DNA from: Pseudomonadota bacterium
GTDB taxonomy: Bacteria > Pseudomonadota > Gammaproteobacteria > Steroidobacterales > JBCBZW01
Length of the DNA: 64,000 nt
Direction of reading: 5' to 3'
Assembly: GCA_039193195.1 (NCBI GenBank)
Contig: JBCCWS010000005.1
Coordinates: 56,172 to 120,171, forward strand
This document shows positions 39,957 to 55,211 of this stretch, one piece after another; positions within the stretch are counted from its first letter, which is position 1; the number at the start of each line of letters is the position of its first letter. The position numbers and the translations under genes were made by a program. The notes under the pieces were generated by a model. The model was not told the origin of the DNA and did no database searches. It saw only the letters and a list, made by a program, of their open reading frames with translations.

Positions 39957-41738
39957 CTAGGGCGGTCTCGGGCGCATTGGAGTCCCGCTTTTATCCCCCG
40001 TGATACCCCAGACAAGGCGGTCGATCGCGCCGACCTCTCGGAAGTCCACCCAGGTCAGGTCCCGTAGGAAGATCGGAAGCGTCGGGGTGGTCTGTGCTGT
40101 GGGCAAGAGCACGGGAATGACCGGCAGCTCCCGATCGAGATACTCGGAAATGAATGCGCGCATTTCCTTGGTATGCCATTGGCCAAAACCTGAGTCGCCA
40201 ACGATTATGGCAGCCGCTCTGCCGGCTTCGATCTGTGCTTCGATGGCCTCCTGCCAAGTGTATCCAGGCCGCAAGTCCCACTTATCTAGCCATGGGAGGA
40301 TCCCCCGTTCGATGAGTGCTCGGCCGATCCTCTCCACTTCCTCTTTATCTTCCGAGTTGTGGCAAAGAAACACGTCGTAGTCCGCAGAACTTCGCTTACC
40401 GACTATCGTTTGCGTAGCATTTCCTCTCTCATGTGTTTTACGCCTAGTGTGCTTGGCTTCTTCGACTTGACCGCGTCGCTGCTTGGCGTCCACCGGACAC
40501 GAACAACACACGCGGAAACCCACGTGGGAGTGGCGCTCGCCCGAGAAGTACCAGAATCGGTAGGAATTGGTTGCGCTGAAGGGCAAGTCTTGCCAAGACC
40601 CGCCCCGAAGTGAACGGGCTGCATCGCCACTTATCTGCGTGCGCTGCGGACTTCCATATTCATTAGCACACCATTCCCAGACGTTCCCACTCATATCTTC
40701 AACGCCATAAGGAGAGGCCCCATGGGGGAATAGCCCAACGGCGATTGTCTCCTCTGGCTTCGCGCCACTGATACCGGCGCCACTCTCGTCTACGTGTGCG
40801 TAACCGGCCTCGTACTGATCGCCCCACGGGTAGATGCGAGCGTCTTGTCCCCGAGCAGCTTTCTCCCATTCGTGTTCGGTTGGAAGCCTCACCCGATACC
40901 CGAGGCGTTTGCTTAGCCATCGGCAATAGGCCACCGCCTCGCACCAAAGCACCCTTTCCCGTGGTCGATTGGGCACGTTCCAGCGACCGTGGCTCGCGGG
41001 CGCTCTATCATCGAGATCCTCCCACCAGGCGTCCTGATCATAGCCGCCATCTTCAATGAAGGTTTGAAATTGGGCGTTAGTCACCGGAAAGCGCGCCATG
41101 TAGTACTCGTCGATCTCAATAGGCTCCAAGGCATCGCCAAAGGAGAACGTCCCGCTGGGCACCTTGCACCAGCCGATATCCGGCAGGCCGCCAGCCGATA
41201 GGCCTACACCAGGTCCAAGGTCACCTAACCGTGCAAGCCTGTCGCCTATAGCTGCACGCTCCTTTGGCTCTGTGTGAGGGTCATTGAGGAGGGATGGTAT
41301 CTCCAAGGGTGTATGCCTACCGTGTGGGGACAAGCTAGCCTTGTCGGCCTCAAGCCGCGCTTCAATGTGCGCAAGTAGGCGAGCTTCTGCCTCTTGATCC
41401 TGAGTGAACAGATCAACGAAAAGGTGCTGTCTAAGGCCGAGCGGTGGCATCACGTCCTCAAGTCGTACGGGCACGAGCTTGCTTGCCCGTTGCGCTTCCT
41501 CCGCTTCGTCTAGCACCCAGTTCGATTCGAGAGCGCTAGACGACCAGAACACGACCACGCAGCTGGCGTCCTCGATGGCTTGGAGGATCGTATCGCTCGG
41601 TCGCTCCCCGATCAGCAGCTGCTCTTGGTCCCACCAGATCGGCCACCCGCGGTTTCTGAGCAGACTGACGACTCTCTGTACTGGCAGAGTGTCTGCAGCT
41701 GCGTAGCTGAGAAAGACGTGTCTCGCGCTCTCTTCCAT
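39957..41738 (-). CDS. TIR - FGE/SUMF1-like - TIR multidomain protein
   Basis: N-TIR VFLSYA...SNWVLDE; FGE-like RLPTEHEWEKAARG, GNVWEW, RGGSW, GFR; C-TIR DVFLCHNSEDK...WHTKE. Confidence 0.88.
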   Translation of the reverse strand: MEESARHVFLSYAAADTLPVQRVVSLLRNRGWPIWWDQEQLLIGERPSDTILQAIEDASCVVVFWSSSALESNWVLDEAEEAQRASKLVPVRLEDVMPPLGLRQHLFVDLFTQDQEAEARLLAHIEARLEADKASLSPHGRHTPLEIPSLLNDPHTEPKERAAIGDRLARLGDLGPGVGLSAGGLPDIGWCKVPSGTFSFGDALEPIEIDEYYMARFPVTNAQFQTFIEDGGYDQDAWWEDLDDRAPASHGRWNVPNRPRERVLWCEAVAYCRWLSKRLGYRVRLPTEHEWEKAARGQDARIYPWGDQYEAGYAHVDESGAGISGAKPEETIAVGLFPHGASPYGVEDMSGNVWEWCANEYGSPQRTQISGDAARSLRGGSWQDLPFSATNSYRFWYFSGERHSHVGFRVCCSCPVDAKQRRGQVEEAKHTRRKTHERGNATQTIVGKRSSADYDVFLCHNSEDKEEVERIGRALIERGILPWLDKWDLRPGYTWQEAIEAQIEAGRAAAIIVGDSGFGQWHTKEMRAFISEYLDRELPVIPVLLPTAQTTPTLPIFLRDLTWVDFREVGAIDRLVWGITGDKSGTPMRPRPP

Positions 41739-41905
41739 GTATCGAAGCTCCTAAGTATCAGTCCGTCTGTCAGCGTACGGTCAACGTTGGCGTCGGGTAG
41801 GCATATTCCCAATTCCAGCCCCCAACTTGCACTCCAAGGTGCTTCACTCTTCGTCTATCGGTCCGCACCATAGAACTGTTCTAACACCTAACCCAGGAGG
41901 GATTC

Positions 41906-42862
41906 ATGTCCATGCACGGGACCTGCGATGATTTTCTTGCCTACTGTGCCCAGACGCGAAAGCTGTCCGGTCACACTGTAAAGGCCTACGAGATCGATAT
42001 AAGGGCCTTCCTAAAGAGTCTCGGTGGCGAGGTTTGCGCGACGGAGGTCGACAAGGGTGACCTAAGGGAGTTCGTCGACAGCTGCTTTTCGAGCGGTCTG
42101 TCGCACGCAACGGTCAAGCGCCGGATCGCTTGTTTGCAGTCACTCTTTCGGTGGCTTGAGGGTGAGGGGTTGATTGAGAGCTCGCCATTCCACCGTCTAA
42201 ATCTGAAGCTCCATCTCCCCAAGCGCTTGCCTAGGAATCTGAGCAGAAGCGAGCTTCGCCAGTTGCTTCGAGTCGCGCAACGGCGCATCGGCCTGGGCCC
42301 AAAGTCGTCGTACTTGACTGAGGAGTTTCCGGTGATAACTGTAGGCAACATCAACGCAGTGACGACCCTCCTCGCTGTAGAGCTGCTGCTGACCACGGGT
42401 CTTCGAGCTAGTGAGCTCACCAACGTATCTCTCGATGATCTCTTCCTTGCGGATCGCTACATCCACATCAGGGGGAAAGGGCAAAGAGAGCGTCGCGTGT
42501 TCGTGACGGACGAGTGCATTCAAAATCTGTTGAGGTTGTATGTGCAGATTCGAACCGTGGTGTCGCCAGATCACACAAGACTTTTGGTGAACAGTCGCGG
42601 GCGACCCGCTACGCCCCAGTGCGTCCGTCTATGGATCAGGGACCTTAGTTCCAGGGCAAATCTCGGCCGTCGCGCTACCCCCCATATGTTCCGTCACTCG
42701 GCTGCGACGGAGCTGATCGGCTCAGGAGTAGACATTGCGCATGTCCAAAAACTGCTGGGGCACCAGAGCATTAGCACCACTCAGCTCTACACCCATATCA
42801 CCAATGAGGAGGTCAAACGGAGGGTGGTGAAGGCGCAGGTTCGCCGTCGAAACTATGGATAA
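41906..42862 (+). CDS. Xer-like tyrosine recombinase/integrase
   Basis: Complete catalytic set: TGLRASE (R), RGKG (K), TPHMFRHS (HxxR), LLGH, TQLYTH (Y). N-terminal core-binding domain and AGGAGG RBS. Confidence 0.93.
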   Translation: MSMHGTCDDFLAYCAQTRKLSGHTVKAYEIDIRAFLKSLGGEVCATEVDKGDLREFVDSCFSSGLSHATVKRRIACLQSLFRWLEGEGLIESSPFHRLNLKLHLPKRLPRNLSRSELRQLLRVAQRRIGLGPKSSYLTEEFPVITVGNINAVTTLLAVELLLTTGLRASELTNVSLDDLFLADRYIHIRGKGQRERRVFVTDECIQNLLRLYVQIRTVVSPDHTRLLVNSRGRPATPQCVRLWIRDLSSRANLGRRATPHMFRHSAATELIGSGVDIAHVQKLLGHQSISTTQLYTHITNEEVKRRVVKAQVRRRNYG

Positions 42863-42875
42863 CTGTTAGTTATGC
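42857..42875 (+). repeat. Left dif-like recombination site GGATAA-CTGTTAG-TTATGC
   Basis: Exact reverse complement of 46415-46433; contains the recombinase stop (TAA 42860-62) and the next ATG (42872). Confidence 0.85.
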
Positions 42876-43783
42876 ATAAGTCGACGATCAGTTCTGTTGC
42901 TGACCTATCCCGCCACGAGATGGCTGGGATACTCGAGCTCGCGGCGATGGAGAAACAGTTGTTCTCGGAATTCAGCGACGCTGCAAAGGGTATGATTCTC
43001 GGCTTACTGTTCTTTCAGCCAAGCACACGTAATCGCTTGTCCTTTGGGTCTTCATTTCTGCGGCTCGGTGGCAATACTGTTGGATTCTCCAGTCTCGAAG
43101 AGTCCCGATCAGGTGAGACTGCCCGCGAGGGTATGGAGGATCTCGCGAGGGTCGTTTCTTCCTTTTGTGACTTTGCTGCAATGAGGACGCCAGACGAAGC
43201 CCAGTTCTTAGACTTCGCCAACGCGGCGGAAGTCCCCGTAGTCTCAGCTGGGCACGGGCGTCTTGAGCATCCGACAGCGGGAATGACACACCTTTACATG
43301 CTTACACGTTTGCTAGGATCACTCGATGGGCTCAGGATCTTGGCGTTCGACCATAGCCCGACTCGAACGACCAATTCCATAATCCTCGCGCTGGCCACCT
43401 GGACAAGAGTGCATGTCGATGTCGTGTCGTCAACTGCTCCTTCCAAGTGGCTCGTGCAGAGGTGTGAGCACCTTGGAACCGTATTGCGGCACTACCCCCG
43501 CTTTGAAGAAGTCGAGGACAGCCAAACTCTAAAGGAATATCACGCGATTCTCTTTGACTTCGTAGGCGCCGCCAAGGGCATCTTGGATGGGGAGTTTCGA
43601 TTGACTAAGGAGACCATCAAGCGGTTTGACCCGGAGGTTGCCGTGCTGCATCCGCTCCCTAGGGACGAGCGACTCGCAGCGGAAATCGATGATCTTCCAA
43701 ATGCAAGGTATTTTGAGGTAGTTAAACACGCAAACTATGTCCGCGCTGCGATTTTCATAAAGCGATTGGTTCAGATCAGCTAA
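42872..43783 (+). CDS. Divergent aspartate/ornithine carbamoyltransferase-family protein
   Basis: FFQPSTRNRLSF, AMRT, EHPT, LHPLPR; several ATCase-specific residues changed. Confidence 0.8.
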   Translation: MHKSTISSVADLSRHEMAGILELAAMEKQLFSEFSDAAKGMILGLLFFQPSTRNRLSFGSSFLRLGGNTVGFSSLEESRSGETAREGMEDLARVVSSFCDFAAMRTPDEAQFLDFANAAEVPVVSAGHGRLEHPTAGMTHLYMLTRLLGSLDGLRILAFDHSPTRTTNSIILALATWTRVHVDVVSSTAPSKWLVQRCEHLGTVLRHYPRFEEVEDSQTLKEYHAILFDFVGAAKGILDGEFRLTKETIKRFDPEVAVLHPLPRDERLAAEIDDLPNARYFEVVKHANYVRAAIFIKRLVQIS

Positions 43784-46418
43784 CACGTGTAGCAATAAGT
43801 GGTAGTGCGTACGGACGCGTCAGCGCGTTTGGAAGAGATTCTGCGAGATCGACCTTTTTGTTGAAGTCGTCGATGTGGCCGCCACTGATGCCTCCGGATC
43901 TGAAAAGGCAGTAGTCTCTCAGAGTGCGGGCCACTTCTCGTTGTTGCTCTTCGCGAAAGCGGAATCTTGTCCTCAGAGAGATACCATACAGTCTCGCGGC
44001 CTCCGCGTAGTCCTTGAGCTCCATCTTGAAGTACGCGAGCGTCTTCGCGGCCCAGGCATGCACCGCTGCGTCGATGGCGAGCGTATGCTGAGTCAGTTGG
44101 TCCACTACGGACTCAGCGAGCTTACAAGCTTCTTCCTCGCGACCAGTTTTCCAGTAAAGAAGTGATGTGTTGAGACTGATCACCAGATGGGAGCGATTGG
44201 ACGCATACTGAACGGTTGCGGCCCGTGCGAACAGGTCTGCTGCGCGGTCCAAGTCGTCTCGCAGCAGCGCAGCTACTCCCCAGTTGTTGAAGGGGGCTAC
44301 ATTGTCGAACGAGCACTTTGACAGCGTGTCGATCGCCTGCTCGAAGTACTTGTCAGCCATCATCAACTGTCCAGCGTAGACTGCTCCCAATCCTGCCATG
44401 TTCAGGCAAGTGCCTAGCAGTCGTAGGTACTTTGCGCCGTAGCGATTTACCAACGAGCGAGCCTGCTCTACACCCAGAGCGTACTTGTCCACAATCTCGC
44501 CGTGAAATCTTGTGATGCCGAGCGATCGGTAGTATTGAGCCATGAGATCCTGGCGCCGCTCGATACTAGGCACTGCTTGAGCCAGCTTGGGCAGCTCATC
44601 GTAGACGAAGTCGAGATCTTCGAACTTCCCTGCGTGCTCCAGAATGGAGCCGTATAGAAGGTAGCTATCTGCTGTTTCCGAAGGCGTAAGATCGGGGAGA
44701 GACATGAGTCTCTGTCCGACTGTGATGCCGGAGGGAAGTGATCGGCGTTCGGGTGTCTCGCATTCCTTGAGCGCTTTGCAGTAGCCCAGCAACACGTGGA
44801 ACAGCTGGTCGCGTTCTACCAGACGACTCCGCAAGTACAGAAAATCGCCGAAGTCACGAGCCGAAGAGAACAGGCCGAGCTCCACTGATCTTAGAAGGGC
44901 TTTCGTGGCGATCGATACCAACTGATGATGTTTCGAAGGAGAGCTTGCTCGCGCAAAGGCGGGGCTGAGAACCGTCAGTACGCGTGGTGTCTGCAGCGTT
45001 GCCTCGACCGCATCGAGCGTCGAGGAGGTCAAATAGGTGAACGCATGCGAGTCTCCCGCTAGAAGTTTGAGCTTGAGTGTGGCCTCGGTTGCCGATTGGT
45101 GACGGATGAAACCCTGTTTGGCTGCATCCTGAAGCAGCGATGAGCACGTAATGTCGATCAGGCTCCTAAGCAACGGGGAGTCGTTCTTGATTCGCTCCAA
45201 AGACTCCAGTTTTCGGTCGTGTGCGAACACGCGATTGCCAATCACGGAAACGATGGAGGTTCGTTCTAGTTCGAGGAGTTGTTCCACGGGCTGTTGGCCA
45301 TAGGAGACGACCGCATGTTGTGTATGCAATTGGCTAAGCAGGTACTCAAGGAAGGGCTTGGAGACGTTTTGATCAAAGGCATACAGGATAAGTAGGCAGA
45401 AGGCTCCAGCTGCTCCGGCTTCTGAGTTTACGAGAAGATCCAGACGACGAATCGAGAGCGTACCGTTGCGTGGTGTAGGCGATGCACTCGCCAGGTAAGG
45501 GCGGCGTGAGTCTTCAGCAACAGAACCTAAGATCTCGCGTTCGAGTTCGGCGAGTGGGAGCTTGCTTGCCTGCGTAAGATCTTCGAAGTTGCCTCGAGTG
45601 TACGAGTGGATACCCTCGGCCAGCCCTAAGAGATCGCCTCGATTGACGTGCTCCAGGTATTGCACCGTGACTTCGTTGGAAATAGCGCCAACTGGGAGCA
45701 CCTCGAAGGGGGTGAAGCTCCCTTTCACACCGCGCTCTACTTCGTTGTACCGATTTTGATCGCGTGCGCTTCGCTTCGGTCGCGTGTCGACGACGAGCGA
45801 GAGTCGAAAGTCGGAGCTACGCAGCTTAGTGGCAAGGCTTACCAATACGTTCAGTGAGGATCGGTCTAGGCGACTGACATCTTGAATGGCGATTACCGAA
45901 TACGCCTGCTCAAAGCGCTTGACAAAACACTTGTGAAGCACGTTGGTCAGCATTGTCTGCAAGCGCCTACCAACGATTTGATGCGTGGTGATTTCATGCG
46001 CGCTGCCGAGTGCATTCGACGGGTCATTTAGCACGTGGGCGGTCCAATCGACTAAGGCAATCTCTGGCACTAGCGTTTTTATGGCCGTCAGCATCGCAGT
46101 GCCCTTTAGCGCATCGAACTCCCTGGTAACCGAACGGCGTAGCGTCTTTGGGATGGTCCGATGAAAACTGTCCAGCAACCGGAGGACGAGCGCGAACTCG
46201 CTGTTGGTATCGTCTTCCCCACACTTGTGAAACTTCACATTACCGTCGAACTCCAGCACATTGCTTAGCAGGTTGACGGTGTACTCAAGCAGTTGGCTCT
46301 TCCCAACTCCCGATTCACCTTCTATCCACAGGGCGGCCCCAGAAGAGAAGCAGCCGCGCTTAACCAGCTGATTTACACGAGTTCTTTCTGATTCTCTATC
46401 GAATAGCTGTTGTCGCAT
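43776..46418 (-). CDS. STAND-like P-loop ATPase with C-terminal TPR-like repeats
   Basis: Walker A GESGVGKS, Walker B-like IAIQD, TRGN (GxP-like), helical TPR-like C-half. Confidence 0.72.
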   Translation of the reverse strand: MRQQLFDRESERTRVNQLVKRGCFSSGAALWIEGESGVGKSQLLEYTVNLLSNVLEFDGNVKFHKCGEDDTNSEFALVLRLLDSFHRTIPKTLRRSVTREFDALKGTAMLTAIKTLVPEIALVDWTAHVLNDPSNALGSAHEITTHQIVGRRLQTMLTNVLHKCFVKRFEQAYSVIAIQDVSRLDRSSLNVLVSLATKLRSSDFRLSLVVDTRPKRSARDQNRYNEVERGVKGSFTPFEVLPVGAISNEVTVQYLEHVNRGDLLGLAEGIHSYTRGNFEDLTQASKLPLAELEREILGSVAEDSRRPYLASASPTPRNGTLSIRRLDLLVNSEAGAAGAFCLLILYAFDQNVSKPFLEYLLSQLHTQHAVVSYGQQPVEQLLELERTSIVSVIGNRVFAHDRKLESLERIKNDSPLLRSLIDITCSSLLQDAAKQGFIRHQSATEATLKLKLLAGDSHAFTYLTSSTLDAVEATLQTPRVLTVLSPAFARASSPSKHHQLVSIATKALLRSVELGLFSSARDFGDFLYLRSRLVERDQLFHVLLGYCKALKECETPERRSLPSGITVGQRLMSLPDLTPSETADSYLLYGSILEHAGKFEDLDFVYDELPKLAQAVPSIERRQDLMAQYYRSLGITRFHGEIVDKYALGVEQARSLVNRYGAKYLRLLGTCLNMAGLGAVYAGQLMMADKYFEQAIDTLSKCSFDNVAPFNNWGVAALLRDDLDRAADLFARAATVQYASNRSHLVISLNTSLLYWKTGREEEACKLAESVVDQLTQHTLAIDAAVHAWAAKTLAYFKMELKDYAEAARLYGISLRTRFRFREEQQREVARTLRDYCLFRSGGISGGHIDDFNKKVDLAESLPNALTRPYALPLIATRVS

Positions 46419-46433
46419 AACTAACAGTTATCC
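46415..46433 (-). repeat. Right dif-like recombination site (inverted copy)
   Basis: GCATAACTAACAGTTATCC; contains the ATG (46418) of the ATPase-TPR gene. Confidence 0.85.
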
Positions 46434-46752
46434 TTTGTTGGAGCGGTTTTAAGCAGAAGCGCAATCGCGCCGCGCTGCAGCAATCCCGTAAGGGGTTGAG
46501 GGTGGCTTGTTCAGCGGCATGGCAATTGCGAGTCAGGTTGAAGCTTGCCAGAGTCGAGCGGTCGCCAAGCACTAACCTAAGCGTACCTGGCGTGGTGCAT
46601 CGACACAGCGCGCGCTGATCACGACTTCGTCGTATACCACTCGGTGCAGGGAGGTCTCGCGGCCACCGGGCCGGGTCTCCTCCTGTGGCGAGTCCCCCCA
46701 GTAAGCATGATCGAGCGCCACTCTGGCGCCAACGGTACTCTGCACGGAAGGT

Positions 46753-48063
46753 ATGTCCAGCTTGAGTCAATCACCGATTCCCCTGCGCCTGTGGTTCATT
46801 AGATTCGCGCGGCAGCCATTCAAGATCCTTGGGCATCTCCTCGAGCCCATGCCCTTCTCCGCCCACCTTGAGGCGACGCACGCGGCACTGAAAAACCGCG
46901 GTCTGCAGCAAACGGTGGGCAGAATACTCGGACGGGACCCTGCAGAGTTTGAAGCCCTGGCAAAGCTAAGCATATTGAATGCCGATAGTAGGAGAAAGCT
47001 CCAGTACGTATCAGAAGTGATCAACAGCGCTTTGTACGGACATCACACGGGCAAGAAGGGCGCGATCCAGCTTGGGGCATGGAGTCGCGAAGTGGGGGAC
47101 ACAGCAAGCGTTGTCGGCCCTGCCCTCGATGCGGTCGATTTCAAGTTCGCGTTTGACGGTGTGCGCGTGCTAGGTCTTCCCCAAGCATCGCGCGCCGCGT
47201 CGGAATGGTCAGATCGTCGTTATGAGATCGCGATCGCCAAATCACTGGCTACAGGGGTAGATGCGGGTGTTCACGCGGCGCATGCGAGGGCAGCAGAAGC
47301 CGTTGCGGCTTTCGTTAGGAGCGAGTGGCCTGGGGGCAACGCGCTTCTACTGCTGGCTCTTGATTCGATGACGGTGCACGGCAAGCCATACTTCTTCGAG
47401 GTCCACATTCCGGGCCGGTCTTTAGGCATACATCTCCTGCCGTTTCTTCTGAAAGGAGAGCAACAGCTACGCCAGTACGCGAGGTCGCAGGTGAGCCGGC
47501 TGGTCCTGGATTTGCGAGACGCTGTGCCGGCTGCGATGCTGGTCCCCCAGGGCCAGACAAGCGATGGTGAATTCGGGCGTTTGGAAACGGCGATGGTCCA
47601 GGCGCTGTGCCACTCGGTACGCGATGAGCCGTCATCTGATCGAGTACCGCTCGTTCACGAGTTGAGCGGAGAGCCTTCAAGGCTGGATGTGGGGAGTGAC
47701 CGCTGGCTCGATAGGGCTCATTGGCTTGAGCGGCTAAACGATGACGCCCACACTTTTGACGGGGTGTCCCAGTGGAGGCTGATTCTTAGAAGTGAAGGGG
47801 TGTTACTGGACAAGGAGGTGCCTGAGGAGTGGGGCGATTGGTTCGTACTCAAGCCAAGGGTGAATCTCCCATGGTGGAGCAAACACAACGCCCGTGTATC
47901 GATCTTGAACCGAACGTCGCCTCGGCATGTGCAGGCGTTTAAGCGGGCCGTCGCCCTTGAAGACGTCATTGTTGAACGCTTGTTCGTCAGCGACTTCAAT
48001 GCAAACGGCGGGACTCAGGAGTACCGCTCATTCTGGGTCCTGCCTTTGCTTGCGAAAGGTTGA
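46753..48063 (+). CDS. Hypothetical protein, possibly a circularly permuted ATP-grasp-like ligase
   Basis: Long ORF; LDSMTVHGKPYFFEVH, FVLKP, VIVER and EYR resemble ATP-grasp motifs. Confidence 0.55.
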   Translation: MSSLSQSPIPLRLWFIRFARQPFKILGHLLEPMPFSAHLEATHAALKNRGLQQTVGRILGRDPAEFEALAKLSILNADSRRKLQYVSEVINSALYGHHTGKKGAIQLGAWSREVGDTASVVGPALDAVDFKFAFDGVRVLGLPQASRAASEWSDRRYEIAIAKSLATGVDAGVHAAHARAAEAVAAFVRSEWPGGNALLLLALDSMTVHGKPYFFEVHIPGRSLGIHLLPFLLKGEQQLRQYARSQVSRLVLDLRDAVPAAMLVPQGQTSDGEFGRLETAMVQALCHSVRDEPSSDRVPLVHELSGEPSRLDVGSDRWLDRAHWLERLNDDAHTFDGVSQWRLILRSEGVLLDKEVPEEWGDWFVLKPRVNLPWWSKHNARVSILNRTSPRHVQAFKRAVALEDVIVERLFVSDFNANGGTQEYRSFWVLPLLAKG

Positions 48064-48456: not shown

Positions 48457-50256
48457 ATGAAAGATCAAAACGTCTTCATCTCCTACAGCCACAAGGATTT
48501 GGCGTGGGCGAAGCTCCTAGCGGAGGAGCCGATCTCCACCACCAGTGGACGCGCGGTCACGGCCATCGACTTCCGGGTGCTCCTCCCAGGGGACCATTTC
48601 GACGAGAAGTTGGAGGCGCAGGTCAAGGCGGCCGACCTCGTGGTTTGCTTGGTAAGCAGCGACTTCCTTAAGTCCGAGTACATCAAGGCCAAGGAAATCA
48701 ACTGGATGTTGCAAAGTCCACAGGGTGGGAAGCAGATCGTCTGGGTGCCGCTGGGTGCCCCTGGGCGGGCGCGACTTTCGCCCGAGGAGCAGGCGATTTG
48801 GGCCGATCTGCAAACGCGGCACTACGACATCAAGTTGCCGCGGCATCCGCCTGTGGGCAACGACAGGGCGGCCGCTGAGCTGATTCAGCGCCTGAGCGGG
48901 ACGATACTGCGCCGCCTCGATCCCATTGGCACAGAGCTGCAGAAGCGGCTGAAGGACTTCAGGGATCTGACCTTCGTCGCGCAGAGTGAGTTCGCAAAGG
49001 TGTACTCGGCGGTCGGCTGCGCGACGGGCATCAAGGTGGCGATAAAGACGCCCGCCACCAGCGACATGCGCACGGGATTCAGGCGCTCCCTACAGCGTGC
49101 TTCGGCGCTTTCCTCGATACCTAACATCGTCTCCGTGTATCAGGCAGTGGACGACAAAGACCCCCCGTTCTGCATGATGGGGTTCATCGAAGGGCCGACC
49201 CTGGCGCAGTGCATTGAGGATCATCACAGGGAGCGCAAGCGAATCGACTTCGCCAGCATCCGGCACGTCCTGCTCAAGCTGGCCCTGGCTCTTCGCGCCG
49301 CGCACCTTCGCGAGTTGCCGCACCTGAACTTGACGGCTTCGAACGTGATGCTCGGCGAGCATTGGGAGCCTCACCTAACGCCCATGCCCAGGTTGCCGTC
49401 AGAGGACCTTCAAGGCGACGAGGAGTACGAGCGCTATACGGCGCCCGAGCGGCGTAAGGGGCAGGGCTGGGAGCCGGAGAGTGCGGATATCTTCGCGCTC
49501 GGCCGCCTCGGTCTGGAGATGCTTGCTGCAGGTGCCTCTGAAGTGGCGCCGCAGGAGCTGGGTCAGGCAGGGGACGGCTGTTCTATTCGCGCCCTGCGGC
49601 CTGAGTGTCCGGTGAGTCTCGAGCGCGCCGTCGAGCAAATGCGTGCTGAAGACCCGGAGCAGCGAGCGAGGTCGCTGGACGTGGCGCTCTCTGCCCTCAT
49701 GTGGTTCCCCGATGCGAAGCTCGGTAAGGTGGAGCTCAGCTGGGCGCGATGCCGCGCTCGCTCCCAGTCCGGTGCTGCGGACGCGCCGCGATTCTTCGAG
49801 AAGTTCTACGACGAGTTTTTTGAAAGCCAGCCCGAGGCTAAGGAACTCTTTGCCAACAGGAAAGACCCGCGCCAGTCTCGGCGCATGGATTTGCTCGTGA
49901 GCGATGCGGTGCGGCACCTGTTCATCTACTACGACATCAACGCTCGTCTGGGAGGCGTACCGGATGAGCTCAATCCGCTCGCCGGACAAGCTCGCAGCCA
50001 CGTGAGAATGGGCGCCAAGCCAAGCTTTTTCGATGCTTTTTCCCGCGCCCTCATCGACACGGTTCGGTTGTTCGACCCGGAAATCGCCGAAGGTGACACC
50101 AATTCGCCGATCCTGGAGGCGTGGGAAGACGTGCTCAAACCCGGGACCAACTACATGTATCGAACGGCCCGTCCCAACCAGCAGTGCACGCCTCTGCCCG
50201 ATACGCCAGCGCCAGGCGAAAAGGCTGAGTTGCCGAGAGAGTCAACGCGCCACTAG
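48457..50256 (+). CDS. TIR - protein-kinase-like (pseudokinase) - globin fusion
   Basis: TIR VFISYSHKD; kinase VAIK, HLNLTASN, YTAPE, ADIFALG; globin FYDEFFESQPEAKELF...RSHVRMG...EAW. Confidence 0.8.
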   Translation: MKDQNVFISYSHKDLAWAKLLAEEPISTTSGRAVTAIDFRVLLPGDHFDEKLEAQVKAADLVVCLVSSDFLKSEYIKAKEINWMLQSPQGGKQIVWVPLGAPGRARLSPEEQAIWADLQTRHYDIKLPRHPPVGNDRAAAELIQRLSGTILRRLDPIGTELQKRLKDFRDLTFVAQSEFAKVYSAVGCATGIKVAIKTPATSDMRTGFRRSLQRASALSSIPNIVSVYQAVDDKDPPFCMMGFIEGPTLAQCIEDHHRERKRIDFASIRHVLLKLALALRAAHLRELPHLNLTASNVMLGEHWEPHLTPMPRLPSEDLQGDEEYERYTAPERRKGQGWEPESADIFALGRLGLEMLAAGASEVAPQELGQAGDGCSIRALRPECPVSLERAVEQMRAEDPEQRARSLDVALSALMWFPDAKLGKVELSWARCRARSQSGAADAPRFFEKFYDEFFESQPEAKELFANRKDPRQSRRMDLLVSDAVRHLFIYYDINARLGGVPDELNPLAGQARSHVRMGAKPSFFDAFSRALIDTVRLFDPEIAEGDTNSPILEAWEDVLKPGTNYMYRTARPNQQCTPLPDTPAPGEKAELPRESTRH

Positions 50257-50422: not shown

Positions 50423-51202
50423 TTAACCGCGAAGAAAGCCTGGTACCCCACCGGCCGTTCGGATTCAAATCACCTTCGATTCACGCTCCTGTAGCCTCTC
50501 AATGGAGTTCAGCCTCTCGAGGAAGGGCAGACCGCTCCTTGGTAACTGCAATATCTTGAATCCCCGTGCCCCGGTCGGGGTACCGGCCGAATCGACATGG
50601 AGATTTACGCATCCTCCCATCACAAAGCGCAGTGACACGCGAGTATGCTTGTCCGTGCGCACGACATCACCTACGTAAACAGGGGCGCCCACGCCGACAC
50701 ACTGAAATCCAAGACCTTCGCCTCTGTCGATTTGTACTCGAGTGCTCTGCCCCTGAACAAGGCCTCTGATCTCCTGTATGTAGGCGACAGGCTTCCGTGG
50801 AAAGATAGTCTGTGCGCCTTCAGGGTCAACGAAATTGACGGGATCGGACGCAGCACAGCTGTACAGGTTGTTGGTGCTTCCTTGAAAACCGATCGGGTCC
50901 TTGCGCGTCCACTGCCCCGAGATGGCGTCGTATTCCCTAAAGCCGAATTGCGTGAGCGCTGTGTGCTGGTCGTAGAGGCTGCCGGCAAAGCCGAAGGGTT
51001 GGAAACCAGGGTTGGTGTCGGCGATGACACGCCCCCACGTGTCGTTGTCGATGCGCTGAATTATCTCTCCGCTGGCGATATCGACGATTAGGCGAATGCT
51101 GCCCAGGTGATCGACGATCACTCTGTACCTGGCGCTGCCGGCATCCAGCGCCGCCGCGTCGGAAAGCGAGTCAACGGCATCGAAACCGTTGCGTGGCTGT
51201 AC
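50423..51202 (-). pseudogene. Decayed Rhs (RHS-associated core) gene with FecR-like C-terminal extension
   Basis: DHLGSIRL...FQPFGFAG.LYD...DPIG...DPVNFVDPEG core; no upstream YD repeats; in-frame TGA at 50465. Confidence 0.75.
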
Positions 51203-51379
51203 GCCGCCGTGAAGGTCGATGACTTCAAGCAAGCGGGCGAGGCGCAGTACACCGAGCTTCAGCATGAGATGATGGACTTCTGGCCGCAGGCCGCCTCCTC
51301 GATAGAGCCTCTGCGGCAGAGCGATTTCATTGCGGCGACTTACCGCGACGTCTGGACGCCGAGACCCTTCGAAGGGCGT

Positions 51380-51544
51380 CTAGTGTCCTGAGTTAGAAGT
51401 TCGTTGATGAATTCGCGGCACCCTTTCGCCCCTGAACACGTTGCTCCTCCTCCCGTGGGACCTGCCACGCTCGTCCTCGCGCCGCGCTCAGGGACAAAAA
51501 CTCGCGTGCGAATTCATCAACGAACCTCCAACTCAGGACACTAG
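51380..51544. mobile_element. 165-bp palindromic MITE-like repeat, copy 3 (opposite orientation to copies 1 and 2)
   Basis: Near-identical reverse complement of 24745-24909; CTAG at both ends. Confidence 0.85.
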
Positions 51545-52178
51545 TCGCTGTCGGTGATATCTGTCATGCGACAGGCCCGCAGTTGGGTCAGGGATGCACG
51601 ATGGCGTTGCTGGACGCGCAACTACTGGCGTGCTGCCTGCAATAAGGTGGGTGCGAACTGGGTCGTAAGCTCCAGCGATGGTGGCATCTCAGATCTCGGC
51701 AACTGCAATACGTGCGGCAGCTAAGCCGCTTGCTGACACCGCTTTACCAGTCCGATCACCGATGGCTTGGCGTGCTCCGCAATGCGGTGGTGGCGCCGAT
51801 AGGTCGCCTGCCCGGTTTCTACACGCTGCAACTGAAGACGTTGGCATCGGAAGTGTTCCTGGCAGGTGTCGATTAGCGGGCAGTTCGCGTCAGGATGATC
51901 CACGTGGAGATGTTTAGGATGTAATGCGCGTAGTCGGCCCTGATGCGGCTTTCCGTCACCAGTTGCGCTAGCTTGACATGCTGGAAGATCTTCCCTTTGC
52001 GCCCGTCGCGCGTACTCCATCGGCGGCGACGGCTTGTTCGCCGAACACTAAGCTGCTCGATGGCGATCGCCGCCTCACGCTCTGCGCGCAGACATGTTCG
52101 CGAACTCGCGGGCGAGCATCGAGCCTTAATGCCGCAGTGGCCGATCGGGTGGGATCGGCGTACCTGACGCCCGGGCAC

Positions 52179-54018: not shown

Positions 54019-54942
54019 ATGGCGAGCACTATCGACATGGGCGTGGCAGCGGCTGCGCTGGTTGCTGAGCTCGGCGGCTTTGCTAAGCAAACTGGCCGCA
54101 ACCCAACACCCCTACAAGCACTTTCGGTGTTCCACGCGGACCGGCCGGCAGCACGCATTCCCGTGCTCTATGAGCCATGCGTGTGCTTCGTCGGCGCTGG
54201 CCGCAAGCGCGTGTTTCTCGATCGCACCGAGTACACCTACGATCCGTTGAACTACTTGGTCGTCGGTGTGCCCTTGCCAGTGGAGGCGGAGATCACCGAA
54301 GCCACTGCGCAGGAACCCTTTCTTTCCCTGCGCTTGGCCATCGACCTTGCGATGCTCGCCGAGCTAGTTGCCGAACTTGGCGAGACACCTGGCGACACGC
54401 ACCTTACGCCGCGCGGCATCTACGCCTCTCCCCTAACGGCGGACATCTCCACTGGCGTGTTACGCCTGATGCGAGCCCTTCGAACGCCGGTGGACCAGCG
54501 CGTGTTGGCGCCTATGGCGGAGCGCGAGCTGCTCTATCACTTGCTGCAAGGCGAGCAGGGACACGCTCTGCGCGCGATCGCCGCTCGCGACGGTCGGGCC
54601 CATCGTATCGGTGCCACCTTGAGGTTCATGGAGCAGCACTACGCAACGCCACTCGCGGTGGACGAGCTTGCCGAGCGCGCATTCATGAGCGCCTCCACCT
54701 ACCACCACAACTTCAAGGCCCTGACGGGTATGTCGCCGCTGCAGTACCTGAAGATGATTCGTCTGCATAGAGCGCGCTTGCTGCTCCTGCACGAGGGCGC
54801 GACGGCGGGGGGTGCGGCGCATGCGGTGGGCTACAACAGCCAGTCGCAGTTCACCCGTGAGTTCCGGCGCCGCTTTGGTAACTCACCGATCGGGGAGCGA
54901 AAGCGCTTGCGGGGCGCCTACCCGACCAATGCGACGGGCTAG
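54019..54942 (+). CDS. AraC-family regulator (YqhC-like), divergent from the AKR
   Basis: AraC N-domain LYEPCVC; C-terminal SPLQYLK...VGYNSQSQFTREFRRRFG. Confidence 0.92.
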   Translation: MASTIDMGVAAAALVAELGGFAKQTGRNPTPLQALSVFHADRPAARIPVLYEPCVCFVGAGRKRVFLDRTEYTYDPLNYLVVGVPLPVEAEITEATAQEPFLSLRLAIDLAMLAELVAELGETPGDTHLTPRGIYASPLTADISTGVLRLMRALRTPVDQRVLAPMAERELLYHLLQGEQGHALRAIAARDGRAHRIGATLRFMEQHYATPLAVDELAERAFMSASTYHHNFKALTGMSPLQYLKMIRLHRARLLLLHEGATAGGAAHAVGYNSQSQFTREFRRRFGNSPIGERKRLRGAYPTNATG

Positions 54943-55211
54943 TGGGCCGCTTGGTAAGTAAGGTAGCGCTCAGTCTGCGTAGGGGCAGCGTCAGCAAGGC
55001 GTGTGGCGCAGCCAATGGCATCGCCATTGGCAAGCGACCGCCTTGCCCTGGCGCCCATGCTACTCGCTGAGCGTCACCTTGTTTACCAAGCGGCCCACTA
55101 GGCGGTAGTCCGAATCCGCGACTGACGTCAGGCACCCGTCGGACGGTGTGTCGGCGGGGTAAGTTGCTGGTAGAGTGCGGGGGTCGTCCATCGCAGCGAA
55201 AGGAAACCCGC

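Follow-up and report, generated by a model that had tools for sequence, protein, structure and literature searches.

Within a 64,000-nucleotide stretch of a Pseudomonadota genome (positions 56,172 to 120,171 of contig JBCCWS010000005.1, assembly GCA_039193195.1; hereafter the window), we examined a locus in which the gene for a Xer-like tyrosine recombinase is followed by two head-on cargo genes, encoding a carbamoyltransferase-like enzyme and a STAND NTPase, enclosed between inverted copies of one short site (Table 1). An earlier note, made from the sequence alone, had proposed that this recombinase is intact, ends inside a 19-bp site and could flip the two genes as a block, and the layout it described was recovered in full. 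The catalytic set of tyrosine recombinases, RKHRHY, is present at R167, K191, H260, R263, H286 and Y295. The second site is an exact inverted copy of the first, embedded in 25-bp arms (42851-42875 and 46415-46439) that are 92% complementary. Exactly two convergent genes with overlapping stop codons lie between the sites, and both cargo start codons occupy the same site position, 9 nt behind the recombinase stop codon, whose TAA (42860-42862) falls inside site A ahead of both ATGs.

The site has an asymmetric spacer, with 7 nt between its ATAA and TTAT inner arms. These inner arms are what remains of the dif-like character that had been ascribed to it: the spacer between the XerC and XerD arms of dif is 6 bp (PMC3025954), and the two copies of the present site diverge 2 nt past TTAT, leaving no conserved 11-bp XerD arm. 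Across the whole 6.71-Mb genome the 19-mer occurs in two copies at up to 3 mismatches, inverted and flanking the two convergent genes; a third, unrelated match appears at 4 mismatches, and 100 shuffles of the window yielded no match at up to 3. The site is thus neither a chance occurrence nor a genome-wide regulator box, and the transcription-factor box that the note had raised against its own proposal was rejected on this count of two. The region has a G+C content of 54-57% against 64% for the genome, and a genome of the same genus (G001) contains neither a match to the recombinase at E 1e-40 nor DNA similar to the island, which together indicate that the island is acquired DNA. No tRNA or Rfam family was found in the window.

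Table 1. Features of the invertible locus, in window coordinates.
Feature	Position	Strand	Remark
Intergenic stretch preceding the recombinase gene	41739..41905	+	presumed place of a fixed promoter (inferred)
Xer-like tyrosine recombinase, 318 aa	41906..42862	+	stop codon in site A; own subfamily
Invertible cassette, sites included	42857..46433		own 3588-nt contig in run X1
Site A	42857..42875	+	holds recombinase stop and ATG of the carbamoyltransferase-like gene
Divergent aspartate-carbamoyltransferase-like enzyme, 303 aa	42872..43783	+	
8-bp overlap of cargo stop codons	43776..43783		
STAND NTPase with C-terminal TPRs, 880 aa	43776..46418	-	
Site B, exact inverted copy of site A	46415..46433	-	holds STAND start codon

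Evidence that the block exists in both orientations came from the contigs of a marine metagenome run (X1), which break at both sites and have depths of 25.2 for the left flank, 22.5 for the cassette and 23.3 for the right flank. A further contig of 41 nt, with a depth of 7.4, consists of 42846-42856, the site and 46414-46404 (minus strand), and so joins the end of the recombinase gene to the start of the STAND gene; apart from this junction, 0 letter differences were observed over 5.7 kb. At face value the flipped form accounts for a quarter to a third of X1 molecules, contig depth being a rough guide. Similar junctions were identified among relatives. In Vibrio penaeicida 6E01, whose three genes are the same and whose inverted sites are 22 bp long, contig C11 connects the start of the enzyme gene to the recombinase and contig C25 connects it to another flank; in Pseudodesulfovibrio karagichevae 9FUS, both cargo genes are found attached to the end of the recombinase gene, and gene 1 also to the distal flank. 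Two assemblies, G428 and G430, contain both orientations. The cassette of G509 was assembled as its own contig, one flank of G444 was assembled on both of its ends, and two flanks in G002 terminate in the same site and gene start. The expectation that inverted sites would give inversion is thus borne out by the flipped left junction in X1 and by the two orientations in relatives' assemblies: the cassette block exists in both orientations within one population. When read relative to the recombinase, the spacers of the window and of Vibrio (L001, 10936-10950) are reverse complements of each other despite the same cargo pair, indicating that the spacer itself turned at some point.

The recombinase scores below the cut-offs of the XerC and XerD NCBIfam equivalog models (211 against 335 bits and 195 against 330 bits) and of the IntI family (99.8 against 265 bits), and has 440 relatives at E 1e-55 or better; the host genome contains two further Xer-like genes. 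The distribution of the site was surveyed beside recombinase matches of more than 190 bits, with duplicate loci of the same place and matches under 190 bits left out, where a strict site (ATAAY-N5-RTTAT) was counted within -15 to +80 of the recombinase stop. The earlier note had asked whether the site is conserved beside homologous recombinases, and such conservation was found: a strict site lies at the stop in 55 of 132 matches, including 7 of the 8 in the top score band, and an inverted copy was identified at 16 of the 19 site-bearing loci with at least 5.5 kb of downstream sequence. Contig ends fall no more than 20 bp from the site in 15 of the 55. The ATG built into the site, on which the note had laid weight, is present in the window and common (26/50 sites), but does not define the family. 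Five further matches (L103, L183, L133, L139 and L011) carry their first site 177-399 bp past the recombinase stop, together with an inverted copy, which leaves space for a separate promoter.

A first set comprised 21 complete cassettes spanning 1.6-5.2 kb. In all 21, exact inverted cores enclose a head-on pair of genes, and the stops overlap in 19; both ATGs lie inside the site in 11, the remainder being mostly a few bases beyond, and the enzyme gene adjoins the recombinase in 18. A 30-bp "extended repeat" in L002 was discarded, as it represents an assembly overlap with the recombinase end and not a longer site. Named carriers belong to the Pseudomonadota, Thermodesulfobacteriota and Bacillota. 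Carriers are rare in random genome samples, with 3 among 400 in the class of the window (window included) and 5 among 401 in the Vibrio order, and the system is commoner in the Desulfovibrionaceae (19/301), where 15 of 18 regions possess the site pair, comprising 11 simple two-gene, 2 three-gene and 2 irregular cassettes. Four Desulfovibrionaceae genomes (G840, G985, G1039 and G1054) contain two recombinase-cassette loci each. A plasmid search gave no match at E 1e-45. Viral contigs yielded 47 recombinase-profile loci, of which 3 have a strict site, none has a strict inverted copy and one (L183) has a relaxed site pair, and there were 2 pattern matches, which argues that the system is not mainly a phage element.

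The enzyme encoded in the window resembles aspartate carbamoyltransferase (PyrB score 126 bits, cut-off 263) and is additional to the housekeeping pyrB, which sits on contig C29. Together with its relatives it forms a divergent subfamily, about a dozen clusters in size, across which the carbamoyl-phosphate residues S51, T52, R53, R105 and H133 are conserved. In the window enzyme R165 is retained, HPTQ reads HPTA and the TRIQKER motif is replaced by AILFDF; subfamily-wide, an arginine matching R167 is kept, and acidic residues stand where the archaeal structure 1ml4 has its TRIQKER stretch. We take the missing residues of this stretch to be aspartate binders, and infer that the enzyme may be a carbamoyltransferase for another, perhaps basic, acceptor. 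Its nearest relative, P0122 (59%), and a close recombinase relative, P0016 (54%), both come from two ENA contigs (the longest 19569), which makes a third copy of the same cargo probable. The STAND protein comprises an NTPase core followed by TPR repeats, with Walker A at residue 34 and an atypical Walker B at residue 175. The Atlas groups it with MalT/LuxR-type architectures, and it aligns with the Vibrio partner protein at 22-26%; a homologue search among proteins returned the protein itself and nothing more. Neither an effector domain at the N- or C-terminus nor a DNA-binding domain was found in it.

Across the family, one cargo gene nearly always encodes a group-transfer or ligase-type enzyme. 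One scan covered 41 cargo proteins (37 of the 39 listed and 4 from other loci). The enzymes include carbamoyltransferases of two folds, ATP-grasp, serine hydroxymethyltransferase (SHMT)-like and spermidine synthase-like proteins, as well as glycosyl-, methyl-, prenyl- and phosphatidyl-transferases, and the type of partner follows that of the enzyme. ATP-grasp, SHMT and aspartate carbamoyltransferase-like enzymes occur with STAND-TPR proteins of about 800 aa; GT9, GT2 and NodU-type enzymes are paired with longer STANDs, of which some have a SIR2 or an Mrr-type nuclease domain; and lipid-modifying enzymes with multi-pass membrane proteins. Among 13 ATP-grasp/STAND cassettes, which occur in both orientations (STAND first in 5), distances between enzymes correlate with those between STANDs (Mantel rho 0.56, p 0.00015), and neither cargo gene tracks the recombinase (rho 0.07 and 0.13). 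This correlation points to joint inheritance of enzyme and partner, and not to binding between them.

Comparison of eight Desulfovibrionaceae locus pairs, picked for shared neighbours, revealed that the cassettes are also replaced. For four of these (L260/L261, L267/L269, L003/L254 and L007/L255), flank homology of 80-94% stops at site A and restarts at site B, with unrelated cargo in between; among the remaining pairs, one lacks a right flank and three share essentially the recombinase side alone. Where spacers differ among relatives, both site copies change together. Also, in L003 (10936-18069) and in L254 a single recombinase is followed by two tandem cassettes, which are separated by about 90-100 bp and do not share a spacer. 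In relatives, the same sites thus appear to allow replacement of one cassette by another over evolutionary time. The integron-like capture system, which the earlier note had offered as its alternative, stands in so far as cassettes are replaced exactly between sites in relatives, and fails in that integron features are absent. In L262, the DNA past site B contains a short part of the recombinase end duplicated in inverted orientation, together with a second, broken recombinase copy and another site, perhaps the relic of an exchange event.

With reasonable confidence, we consider the locus a switch: a block that occurs in two orientations, likely flipped by the adjacent recombinase, whose predicted outcome is either/or expression of the enzyme or the STAND protein. 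It is very probably the adjacent tyrosine recombinase, and not the host XerCD, that cuts the sites. Strand exchange would fall in the 7-bp spacer, so that the recombinase's own stop stays intact. Orientation would then decide which gene lies next to the recombinase and is expressed, the carbamoyltransferase-like gene in one state and the STAND-TPR gene in the other. Somewhat less securely, the recombinase transcript probably also serves the proximal gene, whose translation would be coupled to the stop codon 9 nt upstream, the distal gene being promoterless and overrun by antisense read-through. Such read-through is suggested by the overlapping stops and by a search that found no terminator-like site between the cargo genes. 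In the message, site A forms a hairpin (z -2.5) that covers the start codon and that a terminating ribosome could open. A scan for sigma-70-like promoters gave none in 41500-47000 and missed even its positive control; a crude strand comparison of the distal flanks of 40 cassettes gave 19 inward against 21 outward, with the positive control upstream of the recombinase failing as well.

As to function, we tentatively suggest that the two genes may be the matched pair of a conflict module, kept in different cells, in which the enzyme would carbamoylate a non-aspartate acceptor and the STAND protein would sense the product or the enzyme. A conflict module split between cells is favoured by the SIR2 and nuclease partners of the family and by the TIR neighbours of the window, which are conflict-type proteins. 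One, a TIR / FGE-sulfatase-like / TIR protein (39957-41738, minus strand), is divergent from the recombinase, and the other, a TIR / kinase / globin-like protein (48457-50256, plus strand), lies two genes past the cassette; each has a weak PADLOC domain match. The evidence for defence is modest.

Several observations weigh against the switch or against this role for it. X1 is the sole public run that contains the locus, runs X2 and X3 having given no match; the assembly may itself derive from X1, which therefore counts as one sample seen as contigs only. Its contigs did not include the reciprocal junction of distal flank, site and enzyme start, which, at a guess, could have been lost in graph cleaning. 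The strict site is missing nearby in 77 of the 132 recombinase matches; many of these are truncated contigs or fall in a branch apart, where the Xer-like proteins of the host itself are also found, and a few siteless close relatives with long downstream DNA also exist (for example L088, L116, L141 and L145). Four of the 15 Desulfovibrionaceae cassettes depart from the simple two-gene pair. With respect to defence, no PADLOC model matched the two window cargo proteins, and the window STAND has no recognisable effector. A scan of 82 of the 126 flanking open reading frames of Desulfovibrionaceae cassettes, leaving out 44 more distant or duplicated ones and made with no matched control, gave PADLOC matches for 7, two of them on generic domains, which suggests that these cassettes are not in typical defence islands.

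Among the other explanations, the one that survives best, though improbable, is that the locus is mainly a cassette-exchange platform: both genes would be co-expressed, the distal one from a far-flank promoter, and inversion would be a by-product or a means of tuning their ratio. Such a platform is consistent with the replacement of cargo precisely from site to site (four locus pairs), with the tandem cassettes of L003 and L254, which follow a single recombinase and differ in spacer, with the travelling of enzyme and partner as a fixed pair, as co-acting proteins do, and with a possible ribosome-binding stretch in both window flanks. Co-expression, however, needs no head-on layout with starts at the sites, yet each of the 21 cassettes of the first set shows it, and orientation is biased toward enzyme first (18/21). 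A Shine-Dalgarno-like word beside the site in 4/40 distal against 8/40 proximal flanks also speaks against it, the difference being weak.

We give less credence still to a timer of toxin-antitoxin type, in which transcription is either/or and the proteins nevertheless meet, the enzyme binding or modifying the STAND protein and holding it off; after a flip, decay of the enzyme would gradually set the STAND protein free. Inhibition by binding has a precedent in the enzyme MalY, which inhibits the STAND protein MalT in this manner (PMC10427625), and the window STAND is grouped with MalT/LuxR-type architectures; enzyme-first is the majority state, and the aspartate-binding motif is lost from the enzyme. 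Against this, STAND-first is a frequent state (judged from contig depth, some quarter to a third of molecules here, and the assembled form of 5 of 13 ATP-grasp cassettes) and hence not lethal by itself, and S51, T52, R53, R105 and H133 are kept subfamily-wide, as catalysis would require.

It is very unlikely that host XerC/XerD act on the sites as pdif-like targets and that the neighbouring recombinase is a bystander. The inner arms ATAA and TTAT(G) do match E. coli dif (PMC3025954), two other Xer-like genes are present in the genome, and modules are inverted and deleted through pdif sites whose spacers match (PMC13141974); yet the arms are separated by 7 nt, not 6, there is no conserved XerD outer arm, and the site follows the recombinase subfamily across phyla while being absent from the branch of host Xer-like proteins and 22 other rows. 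Least credible is the absence of any active switch, with the junction contig a library chimera or the product of another strain locked in the opposite orientation, since, for all that only one of the two flipped junctions was seen, in contigs and not raw reads of a metagenome, its depth of 7.4 against 23-25 is high for a chimera, 0 other differences occur over 5.7 kb, and two assemblies titled as strains hold both orientations.

Further elements were observed around the switch. A 436-aa open reading frame directly after site B (46753-48063, plus strand) has no Pfam, NCBIfam or PADLOC match. An RHS/YD-shell core fragment with a variable tail (50465-51265, minus strand) is likely an orphan polymorphic-toxin tip. 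Two 173-bp elements (51376-51548 and 54934-55106) with 40-41-bp terminal inverted repeats resemble miniature inverted-repeat transposable elements or repetitive extragenic palindromic elements; they have 94 and 69 genome copies of at least 120 bp, respectively, and the first also occurs many times in G001.

If the switch operates as we favour, it moves whole genes that are unrelated and yet matched, in a cassette that is also exchanged between genomes, and it does so in marine, soil, gut and sulfate-reducing bacteria. A more doubtful extension is a platform of makers and readers, in which the recombinase exchanges cassettes and splits a clonal population such that one orientation marks and the other senses or kills, the two never being in the same cell. 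Were this so, the marks would be carbamoyl, methyl, glycosyl, aminoacyl and lipid groups; phage grown on makers, or molecules released from them, would trigger readers, giving immunity by division of labour; and dozens of divergent copies of housekeeping enzymes would be new signal makers. Apart from this scenario, the recombinase and its 15-bp site offer a simple means of finding uncharacterised enzyme-partner pairs, a large pool in which many members include effector-less STAND proteins. Cultured carriers are available in Vibrio penaeicida and the Desulfovibrionaceae, and the compact recombinase with its exchangeable spacers could serve as a genetic tool.

No description of the system, its site sequence included, was found in the open literature. 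Kaur et al. 2021 was considered as a possible description and rejected, as "recombinase" and "integrase" occur 0 times in PMC8195603. The gene-altering inversion screen of Milman et al. considered repeats of at least 22 bp, one of them inside a coding sequence (PMC9881135), and the window's pair would escape it because the 19-bp site falls below that length. Large inversion catalogues may list single members. That the system could be missed before is explained by its short sites, which break assemblies and fall under the size limit of that published screen.

Known systems share individual features with the locus. Avs proteins are STAND NTPase-TPR sensors of phage; as in these and in the MalT family, an NTPase core is joined to TPRs here, and some family partners carry SIR2 or Mrr effectors, whereas the window STAND has neither an effector nor a DNA-binding domain and no PADLOC match. 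Integrons combine a tyrosine recombinase with cassettes that can be exchanged, look promoterless and are expressed according to their position, and cassettes are likewise swapped at recombination sites here (4/8 pairs of Desulfovibrionaceae relatives); unlike integrons, the system has no attC hairpins and no membership in IntI, its sites are inverted identical palindromes of double-stranded type, and the recombinase points toward the cassette. In the R64 shufflon (Rci) and the phage Mu G segment (Gin), an invertible segment beside the recombinase holds alternative coding sequences on opposite strands, and homologous variable 3' ends are fused to a constant 5' gene part. No fusion forms in the present locus, where the recombinase stop precedes both ATGs.

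Two further parallels are Xer-type systems. The pdif sites are XerC/XerD-type sites with a 6-bp spacer used by host enzymes, and differ in this from the dedicated recombinase, 7-bp spacer, chromosomal loci in several phyla and strict head-on gene pair described here. As in the pdif modules of Acinetobacter plasmids (PMC13141974), modules are bounded by dif-like sites, inversion is spacer-matched, related backbones carry different modules, and tandem modules have distinct spacers. In the vpma locus of Mycoplasma agalactiae, an adjacent Xer-type recombinase (Xer1) inverts DNA to link a silent gene to a fixed promoter, the genes being paralogous surface lipoprotein genes with a 21-bp conserved site 51-72 bp ahead of the start (PMC2268961). 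The vpma locus, like vsp of M. bovis, shares with the present one the adjacent Xer-type recombinase, sites just before the starts and the movement of whole genes; the present locus differs from vpma in its two unrelated genes with overlapping stops, in a site that holds both the recombinase stop and an ATG, and in a cassette that is replaceable. We regard the locus as an apparently active member of a widespread family of invertible and exchangeable two-gene cassettes, a variation on known inversion switches.

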